Positions 14,546 through 19,219 of a stretch of DNA of 20,000 nt are shown piece after piece (positions within the stretch are counted from its first letter, which is position 1; each line of letters opens with the position of its first letter). Position numbers and translations under genes: made by a program. The DNA is taken from positions 55,571 through 75,570 of the IMG/VR virus record IMGVR_UViG_3300043803_001357; one strand, 5' to 3'. The notes below the pieces were generated by a model that saw nothing but the letters and a program-made list of their open reading frames with translations, ran no database searches and was not told where the DNA came from. This DNA comes from an uncultured virus (IMG/VR IMGVR_UViG_3300043803_001357) (Duplodnaviria; Heunggongvirae; Uroviricota; Caudoviricetes).

Positions 14546-14580
14546 AAGCCGGTGGAGTTTTTATACCCCACCGGCTTTCT
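14546..14580 (+). terminator. Stem-loop after SSB, probable intrinsic terminator/attenuator
   Basis: AAGCCGGTGG (14546-14555) pairs perfectly with CCACCGGCTT (14568-14577). It is followed by a short T tract and preceded by an A tract. Confidence 0.7.
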
Positions 14581-14593
14581 AGTTATATACGTT

Positions 14594-15739
14594 ATGGCAA
14601 AGAAAAGTGTTACAAAAGATACATCGGGTCAACGTGACGAATTAATCGAAATGTTGGCGAATGAGCTTAACAAAGCAAATAAAGATGGTGGTAAAATTGC
14701 ACATTTCCTAGATGAACAAGATAATCCTTCAGAAATTACTGATTGGATTAGTACTGGCTCTTCTATTTTGGATCTTGCAATTAGTAATCGTCCACACGGC
14801 GGTCTACCAGTTGGTAAGATGGTTGAATTCAACGGACTTGAAGGTACTGGTAAGAGTCTATTGTCGGCACACGTTGTCGCAGATACACAGAAGAAGGGTG
14901 GAGTCGCTGTAGTAATTGATACTGAAAACGCAGCTGCGCCTGAGTTCTGGAAGAGTCTTGGTGTAGATTTGTCTAAGCTACTATATGTTCAATGTGAAAC
15001 CGTTGAAGATATTTTTGCTCAGATGGAGAAGATGATCGCGATTGTTCGTAAGAGCAACAAAGATCGTATTCTTACAATCATTGTAGATTCTGTAGCAGCA
15101 GCATCTACTAAAGTTGAATTGGAAAGTGATCACGGTAAGGATGGATTTGCAACGGGTAAATCTATTATTATCAGTAAGGCAATGCGTAAGATTACTACTA
15201 TGATTGGTAAACAGAAAGTATTGACTGTATTTACTAATCAACTACGTCAGAATTTAAATGCTATGGCATTTGGTGATAAGTACGTAGTAAGTGGTGGTAA
15301 GGCTTTAGCATATCATTGTAGTGTACGTGTTCGTTTGAATAATGCCGGTAAACTCAAGAAGGGTGAAGAAGTCATCGGAAACGAGTGTAAGGCAGTTGTT
15401 ATCAAGAATCGTATGGGACCACCTCAACGTCAGGCCAATTTTGATATCTATTTTGATAGTGGAATTGCTGACTATGGCAGTTGGATTAAAGTTCTAAAAG
15501 AACAAAATCTAATTAAACAGGGTGGTGCTTATTATACTTATAAAAAGAACGATGGAAACGAATGGAAGTTCCAATCCAAAGACTTTGTAAGTGTAATGCA
15601 GAGTGACAAACAATTGGGTGAAGAAATTTACCTGAAGATTTGTGACGCTGTAATTATGAAATACAAAGATCCCAATAGTCAAATTATTGAGGATGCTGTT
15701 GTGGATACACACGAAGAAACTGCAGGCAACGAAGAATAA
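14594..15739 (+). CDS. recA: RecA/UvsX-family recombinase
   Basis: ISTGS..LDLAI, Walker A GLEGTGKS, IDTE, Walker B IIVDSVAA, FTNQLR, GGKAL and KNR motifs. The start is placed at ATG14594 because GTG14552 lies inside the hairpin. Confidence 0.95.
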   Translation: MAKKSVTKDTSGQRDELIEMLANELNKANKDGGKIAHFLDEQDNPSEITDWISTGSSILDLAISNRPHGGLPVGKMVEFNGLEGTGKSLLSAHVVADTQKKGGVAVVIDTENAAAPEFWKSLGVDLSKLLYVQCETVEDIFAQMEKMIAIVRKSNKDRILTIIVDSVAAASTKVELESDHGKDGFATGKSIIISKAMRKITTMIGKQKVLTVFTNQLRQNLNAMAFGDKYVVSGGKALAYHCSVRVRLNNAGKLKKGEEVIGNECKAVVIKNRMGPPQRQANFDIYFDSGIADYGSWIKVLKEQNLIKQGGAYYTYKKNDGNEWKFQSKDFVSVMQSDKQLGEEIYLKICDAVIMKYKDPNSQIIEDAVVDTHEETAGNEE

Positions 15740-15753
15740 TACGTTGATAGGAT

Positions 15754-15805
15754 GTTTTTCCGCATTGCCTACTATTTATTAGTATGGATAACAATGCGGA
15801 AAAAC
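15754..15805 (+). promoter_or_regulatory. Inverted repeat enclosing the endonuclease start codon and a TATTTAT motif
   Basis: GTTTTTCCGCATTG (15754-15767) and CAATGCGGAAAAAC (15792-15805) form a perfect 14-bp IR. An inner stem TACTA/TAGTA reaches the A of ATG15784. TATTTATT lies at 15773-15780. Confidence 0.75.
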
Positions 15806-16716
15806 TCTTTTTTGAAGACCGATCTGAACGATTATATCAAATCTTTATAAAAGATGAATCAATATGTGGATTTACTTCTTTATTTAAACTGAATAAAATT
15901 GGTAGCAAAACTGGGGAAAAAATAAAAAAATATTTATATAATAAATATGGTGAAACTTATTTGAAAAAAATAAGTGCTGTTAGAACGTCTAAAGCTGCTC
16001 ATCAAAAAAGAAACAAAGATAGTTATTTTATTTCTTCAGAAAGAAGACAAAAAATGTCTGTCGGTATTAAAAAATATTATAAAAATAATCAGTCCGCTAA
16101 ATCTAGATGTAGGGATTTAATGATTAAACATTGTTTACCAAAGTGCCAAACAATGGAGAGTAAAATAAAACGAGTAAAGAGTAGAGACTGGTATAAACCC
16201 AGTGAAGACACTAAACAAAAAATGTCTCAATCTCAACTTGGAAAGCCATTAACAGAAGAACATAAGTTAAAATTAAGAAAACCAAAGAAAACCAAACGAT
16301 CTAATTTTAGACATACTACTGAAACAAAACACAAATTATCGTTAATTACTAAAAATCAGTGGAAAAGTGGAATTCACAAACCAATTTTTAAATCTAAAGG
16401 ACAGCAGGAAGTAATTAGATTGTTAAAAGAACAAGGATATTCAATTCAAGATGAATATGTTGTTGGGGGGAAGCCATACGATGTGTTTGTAAAAGAAAAA
16501 AATTTATTAATAGAATTTAATGGTACTTATTGGCACAGAGATCCTAGATTTTTTACATCGTCCGATGAAGTTATTAAAATATGGGAAAAAGATAAAAATA
16601 AAATGTTGATTGCTGAATCGAATGGGTATATAATAAAAGTTATATGGCAACACGATTGGGAACAATGTAAAGACAAAAATATATACATTAAAAAACTATT
16701 AAATGAGCAACTTTGA
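15784..16716 (+). mobile_element. Free-standing homing endonuclease: NUMOD3-like DNA-binding repeats plus C-terminal Vsr/DUF559 (EDxHD-like) nuclease domain
   Basis: Repeats SSERRQKMS, PSEDTKQKMSQSQLGKPLTEEHKLKL and HTTETKHKLS. Nuclease core PYDVFVKEKNLLIEFNGTYWH...DKNK...GYIIKVIWQHDW. The gene is very A-rich, sits between two core replication genes and overlaps the next start by 14 nt. Confidence 0.8.
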
Positions 16717-16831
16717 CAACAAAGAAATGAAGAAGTTATTTTCTTTATTTCAAAATATAGAAAGCGATTCCGTCACCGGAGGACTTAAAAAATCACTTAA
16801 TAGTGATGTCCTTTTGGTTGACGGATTGTAG
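16703..16831 (+). CDS. N-terminal 42-aa fragment of the 5'-3' exonuclease (contains the first catalytic Asp motif LLVDG)
   Basis: ATG16703 translates to MSNFDNKEMKKLFSLFQNIESDSVTGGLKKSLNSDVLLVDGL followed by TAG. It is below the ORF-track cutoff and supplies the beta1/DG motif missing from the downstream ORF. Confidence 0.8.
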   Translation: MSNFDNKEMKKLFSLFQNIESDSVTGGLKKSLNSDVLLVDGL

Positions 16832-17775
16832 TGAATACTTACATTCGTAGTTTTATGGCCATTCCTTCACTCAATGAAGATGGGTTACACACTGGGGGTA
16901 TTGCTGGTTTCTTGAAGAGCATTGGATATGCAATTAAATTACTTTCTCCTACCCGAGTTATTATTGTATTTGATGGTAAAGGTGGTAGTCAGAAACGCAG
17001 AAAGATATATCCAGGTTACAAAAACGGCAGAAAGACTGATATTCGTCTCAACCGTAATTACGAAGAATTATCTTCATCACAGATTGAATCTGTTAACTTC
17101 AAAAAAGAATTGATTCGTACTGTAAATTATTTGGACACGTTGCCTGTAACAGTTATGGCAATTGATCAAATAGAAGCGGACGACACAATTGCTTATTTAG
17201 CTAAAGAAACTTTTAAGGACAGTAATGTAACAATTATGTCTACTGATAAAGATTTTCTTCAACTAGCAAGTGACAAGATTAAAATCTGGAGTCCTGTAAA
17301 AAAGAAAATTTTTGGTTGTAAAGAAATAGTGGATGAATATGGAATTACTTGCAATAACTTTGTTTTATACAGAGTTATGGAAGGTGACGTTAGCGACAAC
17401 ATACCTGGACTAGATGGTGTGGGTTTAAAACGTGTAGTAAAAGCATTTCCATTTTTATCAGACGGTCAACAATATGGATTACAAGAAATTTATAATTACT
17501 CTGAAAACAACAGAGGTAAATATAAAATATACGATACTGTATTGGATAATAAGTTGTTACTAGAAAGAAATCACTCTCTGATGCAATTGAGTGATACGCA
17601 GGTTCAGTCATTTACACAATTACGTATAGAAGAAATAATAAAGACTCCTATTCGTAAAATAGATAAAATGACTTTTACGAAGTTGATTACAGAAGACAAA
17701 ATGTGGAATAATATCCCAAATTATCACATTTGGTTGAATGAGTGTTTTGGCAAACTAAACAGTTTCATCGAATAA
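16831..17775 (+). CDS. 5'-3' exonuclease / flap endonuclease (T4 RNase H-like), main fragment
   Basis: NTYIRSF, IVFDG, RRKIYPGYKNGR, EADDTIA, STDKDFLQL and GDVSDNIPGLDGVG are the FEN/PolI 5'-nuclease motifs. The GTG start overlaps the upstream TAG. Confidence 0.9.
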   Translation: MNTYIRSFMAIPSLNEDGLHTGGIAGFLKSIGYAIKLLSPTRVIIVFDGKGGSQKRRKIYPGYKNGRKTDIRLNRNYEELSSSQIESVNFKKELIRTVNYLDTLPVTVMAIDQIEADDTIAYLAKETFKDSNVTIMSTDKDFLQLASDKIKIWSPVKKKIFGCKEIVDEYGITCNNFVLYRVMEGDVSDNIPGLDGVGLKRVVKAFPFLSDGQQYGLQEIYNYSENNRGKYKIYDTVLDNKLLLERNHSLMQLSDTQVQSFTQLRIEEIIKTPIRKIDKMTFTKLITEDKMWNNIPNYHIWLNECFGKLNSFIE

Positions 17776-17796
17776 AAAATAAACGTTATTTAAACG

Positions 17797-17825
17797 TTGT
17801 GGTTGGTAAAAAACAGTGGTATAGT
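17797..17825 (+). promoter_or_regulatory. Possible extended -10 promoter upstream of the helicase
   Basis: TTGTGG, 17-nt spacer, TATAGT with a TGn extension (TGGTATAGT), 11 nt before ATG17837. Confidence 0.45.
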
Positions 17826-17836
17826 AGAGTTATCTT

Positions 17837-19219
17837 ATGGAAAACAAAAAAGCAATTGATTCATTAACAAAATATGGCCGTGACTTCCAAATCAAGTGTA
17901 TTTCGTGCTTGATATCTGATCGTTCATTTATTGAACGAATTCACGATATTATTGAAGTAGACTTCTTTGAAAGTGATGCAAATAAGTGGGTAGTAAAAGA
18001 AAGTATTAAATATTTCAATGAGTATAAAGATCTTCCAACATTAACAGTATTCAAAATTAAATTGGATGAGATCAATGATGAACTTCTAAAACGAAGCATA
18101 GTAGACAATCTCAAATTGGTATATCAAAAGGTTAGTGATAGTGATTTGAAATTTGTCAAAGAACAGTTTTTGGAATTCTGTAAGAATCAAAAGCTAAAGA
18201 ACGCTATTATTGAAAGTGCTGATCTATTGGCACTTGGTCAATACGAAAAGATTAAAAACGTAGTTGACCACGCAATGAAAGCTGGTATGGAACGTAATAT
18301 CGGTCACGATTACTCTGAAGACGTTGAAAAACGTATGAGTGTAATGAGTCGCAATTGTGTCAAGACCAATTGGACTGAAATTGATACCATTATGGATGGT
18401 GGATTGGCGGCCGGCGAACTTGGTATTATTACAGCTTGTGCTGGTAGTGGTAAGAGTTGGGTACTATCCAAGTTGGGTGCCGAAGCAATGAAGCAGGGTA
18501 AGAATGTAGTTCATTTTACTCTAGAGTTGAATGAAAACTATGTGGGTCTTCGTTATGATGCTTGTTTTACTGGAATTGATTTCCAAAACATTCGTAACAA
18601 CGTTGATATCGTAAAACAGAAGATTGCTGATGTACCAGGCAAGTTGAAGATCAAATACTTCCCAATCAAGACAGTTAGTGCTTATAGTTTAAAAGCACAT
18701 TGTGAACGATTGGCTGTACTTGGTACAAAGGTAGATATGATTATCGTTGACTACGCTGATATTCTACGTCCTTCTCAGAGTGAACGTAATAGTAACAGTT
18801 ATAGTGAAGCTGGTGGTATTTATGAAGAACTACGTGGTGTAGCTGGTGAACTACAAGTTCCTATTTGGAGTGCTTCACAGAGCAATCGTGCTGCTATGGA
18901 TGAAGATATCATTCAGGCTAATAACATTGCTGATAGTTATCGTAAGATTATGACTGCTGACTTCGTTATGTCACTCAGTCGTAAAGTTAACGATAAACAG
19001 GCAAATACAGCACGATTCCACGTAATTAAGAATCGTTTCGGACCAGATGGTTTGACATTCCCAAGTAAGATGAACGCTGGTTGTGGTCACATTGAAATTT
19101 ATGGAGAAAATAGCCGTGAGGGTATGAGTATTCTAAATGAAATGATGGATGGAGAAAATCAAGTTAAAAAAGCACTAAAGTCCAAGTGGAATGTACATAA
19201 CAGCGATGACGAAGAATAA
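17837..19219 (+). CDS. Replicative DNA helicase, DnaB / T4 gp41-like (SF4)
   Basis: Walker A ACAGSGKS, HFTLEL, Walker B IIVDYAD, SASQSNR and KNRFG motifs. Confidence 0.93.
   Translation: MENKKAIDSLTKYGRDFQIKCISCLISDRSFIERIHDIIEVDFFESDANKWVVKESIKYFNEYKDLPTLTVFKIKLDEINDELLKRSIVDNLKLVYQKVSDSDLKFVKEQFLEFCKNQKLKNAIIESADLLALGQYEKIKNVVDHAMKAGMERNIGHDYSEDVEKRMSVMSRNCVKTNWTEIDTIMDGGLAAGELGIITACAGSGKSWVLSKLGAEAMKQGKNVVHFTLELNENYVGLRYDACFTGIDFQNIRNNVDIVKQKIADVPGKLKIKYFPIKTVSAYSLKAHCERLAVLGTKVDMIIVDYADILRPSQSERNSNSYSEAGGIYEELRGVAGELQVPIWSASQSNRAAMDEDIIQANNIADSYRKIMTADFVMSLSRKVNDKQANTARFHVIKNRFGPDGLTFPSKMNAGCGHIEIYGENSREGMSILNEMMDGENQVKKALKSKWNVHNSDDEE

Follow-up and report, generated by a model that had tools for sequence, protein, structure and literature searches.

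A homing-endonuclease cassette ending in the five nucleotides TAGTG within the 5'-3' exonuclease gene of a large lake phage

How does a 5'-3' exonuclease gene come to carry a stop codon overlapped by a start codon at its active-site motif, and can an enzyme still be made from it? The question is raised by a 20,000-nucleotide (nt) stretch of an uncultured member of the Caudoviricetes (IMG/VR record IMGVR_UViG_3300043803_001357, positions 55,571 to 75,570; hereafter referred to as the window), which makes up the final 20 kb of a viral record of 75.6 kb with an estimated completeness of 32%. The answer developed here starts from the five nucleotides themselves. Positions 15740-16833 of the window are a homing-endonuclease cassette inserted between the recA-like and exonuclease genes of a large lake phage, and the insert, TAGTG, is the exact 3' boundary of this cassette, which moves between phage backgrounds. 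A BLASTN search of GenBank phages with positions 15700-17900 gave no match. The features on which the argument depends are as follows (aa, amino acids; ORF, open reading frame).

15740..16833, plus strand: mobile cassette of 1,094 nt, consisting of a relic repeat, a hairpin, the endonuclease gene, a 42-codon replacement exon and TAGTG (limits from the identity breaks with respect to locus L004)
15784..16716, plus strand: gene for a predicted free-standing homing endonuclease, 310 aa, with a C-terminal nuclease domain of the Vsr-like/EDxHD type (PHROG, Pfam and PDB profile matches)
16703..16831, plus strand: cassette-borne N-terminal exonuclease fragment, 42 aa, ..NSDVLLVDGL, ending at TAG (ORF list)
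16829..16833, plus strand: TAGTG insert, a stop codon overlapping a GTG start codon, 3' boundary of the cassette (absent from 48 and identical in 29 of 80 relatives)
16831..17775, plus strand: C-terminal exonuclease fragment (exoC), 314 aa, MNTYIRSF.., resident DNA of the invaded phage (Pfam 5_3_exonuc_N, 3.4e-27)

The split exonuclease gene and the cassette at its 5' end

On the plus strand, positions 16817-16840 read GTT GAC GGA TTG TAG TGA ATA C. The 42-aa ORF ends at TAG (16829-16831), and the GTG at which the 314-aa ORF begins shares the G of this stop codon and lies in the -1 frame relative to the 42-aa ORF. The 314-aa ORF matched PF02739 (5_3_exonuc_N), the N-terminal nuclease domain of resolvase-like (PIN-like) type, with 95.6 bits, against a cut-off of 34.3, over profile positions 10-164 of 164; because the match begins only at position 10, this ORF lacks the first strand of the domain. 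For PF01367, the C-terminal H3TH/SAM-fold domain, the score was 22.7 bits, under the cut-off of 40, and many close homologs carry PF01367 in precomputed annotation. In a large protein collection, the unsplit 355-aa proteins P0003 and P0010 were 100% and 99% identical, respectively, across the 314 aa and read ..LLVDGLNTYIRSF.. at the junction. Unsplit DNA of the form GAYGGN-YTN-AAY, with no insert, was found in 48 of 80 related viral loci (the main clade, 80 of the 160 related viral loci found; loci from different searches were partly the same contigs, and distinct sequence contexts were counted where so stated). The near-identical unsplit relatives lack exactly the five nucleotides TAGTG, which bears out the initial annotation, in which the exonuclease gene was described as being split by these nucleotides at its active-site motif. 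P0010 could be aligned with residues 13-206 of the 5' nuclease of Taq polymerase (7.8e-19), with DILLVDGLNTYIRSF over RVLLVDGHHLAYRTF at the same spacing. The Asp of VDG (D40), which we take to be a metal-binding residue, was invariant among 100 aligned homologs and lies on the 42-aa ORF, and N43 and R47, conserved in at least 90% of these homologs, lie on the 314-aa ORF. These positions and their conservation indicate that the five nucleotides divide conserved residues between two ORFs.

The probability of a sequencing or assembly error, the latter mentioned initially as an alternative, is practically nil. The identical junction, TTGTAGTG, was present in 29 of the 80 related viral contigs, and in 35 contigs by exact-pattern scan. 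Fourteen lake-water runs held at least half of the sampled words of the stretch, at shares of 0.98-1.00, and contigs from two DNA runs crossed the junction with no differences and no gaps. The insert was, moreover, linked to the presence of the 1.1-kb cassette. Two RNA-library contigs, one from library X15 (16674-16855) and one from X16 (16805-16955), also covered TAGTG with no indel, each with fewer than 31 nt on one side; RNA libraries can contain DNA, and these contigs are no proof of transcription or of unedited RNA.

The interruption is intron-free, as first described: it consists of five nucleotides only, and an Rfam search of the window and five other loci yielded nothing at gathering scores. 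A group I intron or an intein at the junction was rejected on these grounds. TAG had been noted as unique to this junction among the called genes, an observation that held for the window, in which none of the 13 large plus-strand ORFs ends in TAG, but not for the whole record, in which three of 53 ORFs of at least 100 aa do so. Recoding of TAG was not supported, TAG being the stop codon of three other large ORFs of the record. No tRNA, and hence no suppressor tRNA, was found by aragorn in the 75.6-kb record (32% complete).

The limits of the cassette were provided by two near-isogenic loci, L003 and L004, which are endonuclease-free and unsplit and encode RecA, exoC and DnaB proteins 100% identical to those of the window. 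Nucleotide identity breaks directly after the recA stop codon (15739) and resumes at AAT 16834. In L003 and L004 the exonuclease ATG comes 2 nt after the recA stop codon, and the 1,094 nt of the window (15740-16833) stand in place of 128 nt that include all 42 N-terminal codons. The exonuclease codons 1-42 of the window are thus a replacement, with 59.5% protein identity to the resident exon of these phages. The same cassette was found in other backgrounds. L091 differed from the window at two positions across 15723-16863, with flanks differing by about 10-20%, and L103 carried the cassette (endonuclease 92% identical) in a background of 78% identity, with an exoC within 0.0045 substitutions/site of those of the unsplit loci L076 and L077. 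In L105 the endonuclease was 83% identical, yet the exon and junction were nearly identical, a pattern that points to recombination within cassettes. The first two codons after TAGTG in L103 are AAC ACC, as opposed to AAT ACT in L076 and L077, and match another donor type; this may reflect a co-conversion tract of a few nucleotides.

The initial annotation had tied the stop-start insertion to the endonuclease gene, which was placed about 110 nt upstream (the ORF ends at 16716, 113 nt before TAG). In the main clade, in which the cassette is polymorphic for presence and absence, this association was complete. Forty-eight of the 80 loci were unsplit and had no endonuclease, none of these 48 unsplit genes being adjoined by one, and 18 loci had TTGTAGTG with a full-length endonuclease, such that every locus with a full endonuclease was split (18/18). 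A further 11 loci had TTGTAGTG without an endonuclease, and three had a second junction, TTG TAG TTA AAT, also without an endonuclease. By this distribution, the micro-insertion belongs with the upstream free-standing endonuclease in the main clade. The split is no singleton: it was found in 32 of the 80 loci, and the insert persists after loss of the endonuclease. The endonuclease-free split loci have either undergone an internal deletion that left the homologous hairpin and about 45 nt, or retain a remnant of 611 nt in which 18 endonuclease codons survive. In a maximum-likelihood tree of 65 distinct exoC sequences, split and unsplit tips were interleaved in at least eight clades, and the occurrence of split alleles beside near-identical unsplit ones indicates repeated invasion. 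The TAGTTA alleles were chimeras, with the first ~18 codons resident-like and the remainder cassette-like; they have kept the right-hand ~70 nt of the cassette exon and the stop codon, which is followed by an intact resident Leu codon, TTA. The P0120 lineage, used to seek the source of the cassette exon, was not found in the viral contigs, and a wider pattern search for cassette-type exons followed by other kinds of junction gave none among the matches listed.

Inserts at the same codon boundary in other phages

Viral contigs were also searched with a profile of the endonuclease family, and distant homologs (33-60% identity) were again located between recA and the exonuclease gene. In 14 of 17 distant loci read in detail, the interruption of the exonuclease gene falls at the same boundary between codons, and in three (L308, L317 and L323) the gene is uninterrupted. 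Over all loci, 71 distinct junction contexts were obtained, 35 unsplit and 36 split, the latter with 12 different insert strings of 5-11 nt, in all three frame relations, at one codon boundary. The inserts were TAGTG, TAGCT and TGACA (5 nt), TAGTTA, TAACGC, TGACTA, TGACTC and TGACTT (6 nt, in frame), TAGAAAA, TAGCGTC and TGACAAC (7 nt), and TGAAGAAGCTG (11 nt). Although no stop was required by the search pattern, a stop codon opens all 12 of them and comes immediately behind DG-Leu or DG-Thr. L300, with an endonuclease 60% identical to that of the window, has kept TAGTG, with CTG rather than TTG as the preceding Leu codon.

A second lineage was sampled with the exonuclease of L320, which is far from that of the window (the L320 endonuclease is 39% identical to the window's). 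Among 72 classified loci of this lineage, 65 of the 66 unsplit ones had no endonuclease, and six were split, by CTT TGA CTT or CTT TGA CTC, of which four had an endonuclease, one did not and one was cut off at the end of the contig. From AAT onward, the split locus L433 is the same as the unsplit loci L434 and L435, with one difference in the 90 nt compared, and its upstream sequence is unrelated to theirs; a cassette-borne CTT TGA CTT takes the place of the resident TTG.

A cassette with much the same layout is known from phage T4. As set out in passages of two sources (bioRxiv 10.1101/2022.08.31.505936; PMC5009743), in which the work is credited to Bonocora et al. 2011, the MobA/gene 60 element consists of an endonuclease gene, an element-encoded homologous region and a 50-nt insert at its 3' end; this insert protects against MobA and is retained after loss of the endonuclease. 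As portrayed there, that element and the one described here share a size of about 1.1 kb, a free-standing endonuclease, a divergent copy of the adjacent target codons and a short non-coding insert at the 3' end, with clean identity breaks at both ends and many independent invasions of related phages; in both, the endonuclease has later been lost and the insert kept, and the target is split beside a metal-binding motif. The differences lie in the insert (5 nt here and 5-11 nt in relatives, as against 50 nt), in the lack of a take-off stem-loop and of matched take-off and landing codons in the window allele, in the type of endonuclease (Vsr-like here, HNH there) and target (FEN-type nuclease here, topoisomerase II there), and in the upstream gene, which has no C-terminal tail extension here. 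A two-chain stop-start seems likelier than bypassing at the present locus.

Expression and survival of the interrupted gene

We consider the locus to be, on balance and by a modest degree, best read as a homing cassette with insert-based protection, restart at UAGUG and a two-chain nuclease. The endonuclease would cut the conserved LLVDG-LNTYIR coding sequence of insert-free phages at co-infection, and repair would then copy the cassette into the cut phage. The insert and the recoded exon would presumably disrupt the target and leave the carrier uncut. Ribosomes would end the 42-aa piece, with the invariant D40, at UAG and restart at the overlapping GUG, and the 314-aa piece would associate with the 42-aa piece, the putative nuclease thereby remaining in use. 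The comparisons establish where the cassette begins and ends, its presence/absence polymorphism, its link to the split and selection on both pieces; the site of cleavage, protection by the insert, restart at GUG and assembly from two chains are what we infer. Protection of the carrier against its own enzyme is suggested by the perfect association in the main clade, by the retention of the insert after endonuclease loss and by the MobA precedent.

Several observations weigh against this reading. Endonuclease homologs (29-52% identical to the respective query) were found directly upstream of unsplit exonuclease genes in L308-L316, L317, L323, L331 and L362, so the split is not obligatory in the wider family; they show that other solutions exist or that the targets of those enzymes differ. 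In three of these loci (L317, L323 and L331), the residue after DG is Met, Tyr or Thr rather than Leu. A search of 29 unsplit 72-mers for a TTNGN6CNAA site like that of I-Bth0305I gave no match and one hit with one mismatch, and no palindrome was found at the junction. In an unsplit relative (L279:2118-2826), the exonuclease gene has an internal deletion of residues 104-180 with a change of frame; this was the sole broken gene, and it indicates that the exonuclease gene is dispensable or can be lost in at least one relative. The open C-terminal frame of split alleles partly reflects recency, as the cassette keeps invading intact genes. Finally, no Shine-Dalgarno-like motif was seen by eye before the GTG of the window, and the first canonical start in the C-terminal frame lies 7 codons after the stop in the TAGTTA type, and 12 (L318), 22 (L326), 74 (L328) or 80 codons (L324) after it in others. 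Split alleles with no start near the stop imply that stop-start is not the general route, and by analogy this weakens the case for it in the window.

The five nucleotides might alternatively be a mere scar of the creation of the cassette, with resistance conferred by the substitutions of the replacement exon. The cassette exon does differ from resident exons at many positions just to the left of the junction, and the coexistence of distant endonuclease homologs with unsplit genes, described above, fits this explanation too. A neutral scar would not, however, be expected to hold a stop codon at the exact position through 12 versions and three frame relations. The TAGTTA chimeras, which have no endonuclease, have nevertheless kept the right-hand ~70 nt of the cassette exon together with the stop, and in the MobA system, as reported in a passage of the preprint (bioRxiv 10.1101/2022.08.31.505936), substitutions alone left nicking unblocked and the insert blocked it. 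We consider the scar explanation rather unlikely.

The split gene is probably functional. From the Asn codon, the C-terminal frame was open for at least 309 codons in all 36 split contexts, in agreement with the initial annotation, which saw no decay in the rest of the gene. The ratio of nonsynonymous to synonymous substitution rates (dN/dS) of exoC was 0.02-0.05 in split and unsplit pairs alike (for the split L198 and the unsplit L066, dN was 0.011 and dS 0.29), values that, because invasions are frequent, mostly reflect the invaded genes. A stronger argument comes from the N-terminal fragment, since this piece moves together with the split. When the TAGTG haplotype was compared with the three TAGTTA haplotypes, the proportions of nonsynonymous and synonymous differences (pN and pS) in codons 19-42 were 0.064-0.073 and 0.29-0.48, respectively, and the fragment is thus under purifying selection. 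Small ORFs of 34-63 aa form 14 clusters in the large protein collection, every one of which ends in (V/I)DGL, and the immediate stop has been retained while varying among TAG, TGA and TAA. Only one PF02739 match was present in records of 132-173 kb (45-73% complete).

The opposite possibility, that a purely parasitic cassette has knocked out a dispensable nuclease and that the open frames merely reflect recent invasion, is quite improbable. The internal deletion in L279 does show that loss can occur, most split alleles are nearly identical to their unsplit neighbors in the tree, so that many invasions are recent, and some alleles have no obvious route for translation of the C-terminal part. 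Against this, no further stop or frameshift was found in any of the 36 split contexts, including the L067 type, which has a 611-nt remnant, a long exoC branch and a decayed endonuclease. The cassette-borne N-terminal fragment, which has long travelled with the split, is under purifying selection, ..LLVDGL followed by an immediate stop has been maintained across 12 insert versions and three stop codons, and the records of 132-173 kb (45-73% complete) yielded no further PF02739 gene. A decayed-gene interpretation of L324, L326 and L328 was likewise rejected, their C-terminal frames being open over 309-326 codons and merely lacking start codons.

The simplest and likeliest route to the C-terminal part in the window allele would be a stop-start at UAGUG giving two chains, to which we assign an even chance. 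The overlapping TAGTG is present in both the window and L300. L327 has a TTGA overlap, with the Leu re-encoded (MKKLNQFIR), and L324 has CTGA, with only a CTG overlapping the TGA. A TTG lies six codons upstream of the stop in all four 7-nt contexts, and in L307 an ATG lies three codons downstream. For homing-endonuclease loci of T4, a passage of PMC2988022 describes coupling through overlapping stop and start codons, as well as restart at a distance of up to about seven codons. The occurrence of inserts in all three frame relations argues, in addition, against a single recoding mechanism.

One chain might instead be produced by recoding: with UAG in the A site, the peptidyl-tRNA-Leu on UUG would hop 5 nt to GUG and translation would resume at AAU, giving ..VDGLNTYIR.., and the insert would correspond, on a miniature scale, to the coding gap of T4 gene 60. 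Removal of the five nucleotides does restore the spacing of all relatives and of Taq (DG-x4-YR), the stop invariably comes directly after a Leu or Thr codon, and in L433 the whole of CTT TGA CTT is cassette-borne and replaces the resident TTG. However, the take-off codon UUG (CUG in L300) matches the landing codon GUG at two of three positions only, and none of the out-of-frame inserts TAGCGTC, TGACAAC, TAGAAAA and TAGCT offers a matching codon for landing ahead of AAY. One recoding mechanism does not fit three frame relations, and the RNA at the junction folds no better than shuffled sequences (z = -0.54). Short hops in constructs are, moreover, inefficient (~1%). For the window allele we consider such recoding unlikely, and, within it, a -1 or +2 shift less likely than a hop; the -1 shift put forward in the initial annotation (DGL-VV-NTY) was abandoned for want of a slippery site, the slippery heptamer being absent.

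The in-frame alleles lend themselves more readily to recoding. In nine of ten in-frame contexts, the stop is followed by a Leu codon of the same codon box (UUG UAG UUA, CUU UGA CUU, CUU UGA CUC and CUU UGA CUA), and in several in-frame alleles the first canonical start lies 7, 8, 22 or 74 codons downstream with the frame still open. The layout of these alleles (TTG TAG TTA and CTT TGA CTT/CTC/CTA) is that of synthetic stop-hops, in which the stop is flanked by codons readable by one tRNA. Stop-hops of this kind were obtained in Escherichia coli constructs by Weiss et al. 1987, as described in part of a 2016 review (PMC5009743), a passage of which states that natural in-frame stop-hops are not known. 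As in those constructs, the related in-frame alleles have matched Leu codons around the stop and would use 9 nt for one residue, whereas the window allele has a 5-nt out-of-frame insert and unmatched codons, UUG and GUG. For the in-frame alleles, UGA readthrough is an alternative. That the stop inserts of the cassette family are natural short-range recoding sites, with a tRNA-Leu hop at in-frame alleles and perhaps at UAGUG restoring ..VDGLN.., is a possible, if doubtful, generalization. If true, it would provide the first natural stop-hop, endonuclease self-protection by the smallest possible "coding gap", and an evolutionary series, of 5-11 nt and in three frames, that connects splitting by stop-start with bypassing of the gene 60 type.

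The endonuclease, comparable systems and the surrounding locus

By its sequence matches, the 310-aa ORF is a predicted free-standing homing endonuclease of the EDxHD or Vsr-like type. It matched PHROG 559 (2.4e-16) and PHROG 3339, "homing endonuclease" (3.9e-11), and its C-terminal third matched, below the cut-off, the Pfam family MTES_1575 of Vsr-like restriction endonucleases (1.6e-7). Among 55 homologs, PF18741, PF07460 (NUMOD3) and PF04480 (DUF559) were present, and two were named Vsr endonuclease by a source; PF07460 was recorded in 21 of the 55 in precomputed annotation, and no NUMOD hit was obtained on the window endonuclease itself at E≤0.01. Residues D233, E244, N246, G247, W250, H251, D253 and D270 were invariant in 26 sequences. 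Against the PDB, the single endonuclease sequence gave no meaningful match (phmmer), and the family profile had I-Bth0305I (3R3P; E=0.032) as its best match, followed by Vsr (0.85), a weak level of sequence support, with E-x-N-G-x-Y-W-H and D-K-x-K aligned to 3R3P. The EDxHD family, including I-Bth0305I (Taylor et al., PMC3239194), and the "fractured genes" family (PMC2677866) occur, according to parts of these papers, in metagenomic phage genes for DNA metabolism, with free-standing forms included. As characterized in those parts, they have in common with the present family the conserved D, E-x-N-G-x-x-W-H and D-K motifs, and NUMOD-type motifs in homologs; the window endonuclease differs from I-Bth0305I in being borne by neither an intron nor an intein, the similarity to 3R3P is weak, and the target consensus is not at the junction.

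Friedrich and colleagues reportedly described, in 2007, the Aeromonas phage Aeh1 nrdA gene split by mobE as "genes-in-pieces". As presented in portions of two sources (Crona et al., PMC3045599; bioRxiv 10.1101/2022.08.31.505936), that case resembles ours in that a free-standing endonuclease splits a gene for an enzyme of an essential type, the enzyme working there as separate polypeptides. In Aeh1, however, mobE lies between the halves and element-derived tails mediate assembly, whereas here the endonuclease gene is upstream of both halves, which are separated by 5 nt with overlapping stop and start. The coupling of stop and start in phage operons (nrdA/mobE UAAUGA, in a passage of PMC2988022) is similar in that UAGUG likewise overlaps by one base, but the cistrons here are halves of one enzyme domain rather than two genes.

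The literature consulted, which covered few subscription journals, gave no account of a split 5'-3' exonuclease gene with such inserts. To our knowledge, MobA/gene 60 was, until the 2022 preprint, the sole endonuclease known to travel with a short frame-interrupting insert in its target, and all reported cases that we know of involve a topoisomerase and a 50-nt bypass. The present cassettes extend a MobA-like logic to another endonuclease family, another target enzyme and inserts of as few as 5 nt, in a system that is abundant in phage metagenomes from lakes and other aquatic environments. A few bases could thus make a conserved active-site coding sequence uncuttable, provided that expression of the gene continues, as separate pieces or through recoding. 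As a natural series at a single codon boundary, the 12 inserts could serve to study the minimal needs of restart, readthrough and hopping, and they bear on the existence of natural stop-hops, listed as unknown in the passage of the 2016 review cited above (PMC5009743). Gene callers list such genes as truncated proteins of 306 or 314 aa and a hypothetical protein of 42 aa.

The remaining features of the locus are the two flanking genes and two elements at the left end of the cassette.

14552..15739, plus strand: RecA/UvsX-like recombinase gene, left flank and homology arm of the cassette (Pfam RecA, 1.5e-53)
15738..15776, plus strand: diverged direct repeat of exonuclease codons 43-55, reading NTLIGCFSALPTI, at the left end of the cassette (22/39 nt)
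15754..15805, plus strand: RNA hairpin around the endonuclease start codon (ATG 15784)
17837..19219, plus strand: DnaB-like helicase gene, right flank (Pfam DnaB_C, 1.1e-22)

The direct repeat (15738-15776 versus 16834-16872, NTYIRSFMAIPSL) was the single best of 19,884 ungapped window positions. A larger relic was found upstream from the endonuclease in L300 (L300:2335-2500), with resident exon codons 1-35 followed by TGACTC and then NTFLRCFS. These relic repeats suggest that invasions took place serially, or that the cassette arose by an insertion about 12 codons 3' of the stop insert. The hairpin had a minimum free energy of -29.5 kcal/mol (z = -5.26), and none of 200 shuffled sequences folded as well; a start codon inside a hairpin is an arrangement known for several T4 homing endonucleases, according to a passage of PMC2988022. 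A homologous hairpin has been retained, between recA and the exonuclease gene, in derivatives from which the endonuclease has been deleted (L025, L046, L027 and L054). Its loop was reverse-complemented between loci, reading ATCTATATTAGA in L025 and TAATATAGATGA in L046.

The gene order is that of a T4-like replication and recombination block: a gp32-like gene, the RecA/UvsX-like gene, the 310-aa ORF, the split exonuclease gene and the DnaB-like gene, followed by the start of an ORF resembling class I ribonucleotide reductase (named by eye). The 42-aa fragment starts (ATG, 16703) within the endonuclease ORF, whose last 14 nt (to 16716) it overlaps, such that recA, the endonuclease gene and both exonuclease pieces constitute a chain of closely spaced or overlapping cistrons. 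Other interruptions were observed in the neighboring genes of related loci. In L028 (L028:1797-3324; also L084 and L106/L277), residue 246 of recA is followed by an intein-like insert (C-V-D-P.. and ..N-H-N|T) whose own frame meets a stop after its 15th codon and which contains an ORF for a Vsr-like endonuclease, an arrangement resembling the "fractured gene" split inteins of Dassa et al. 2009. The DnaB-like gene of L023 (L023:2356-3724) appears as two pieces that overlap and are read in different frames, with residues 1-221 in one and 223-460 in the other, through either a frameshift or an assembly error. In some relatives dnaB contains an intein at GSGK|C...SHN|S, which in L070 (L070:5622-6264) is a mini-intein and in L054 (L054:5624-6993) holds a Vsr-like endonuclease 28% identical to that of the window, the dnaB gene of which has no intein.

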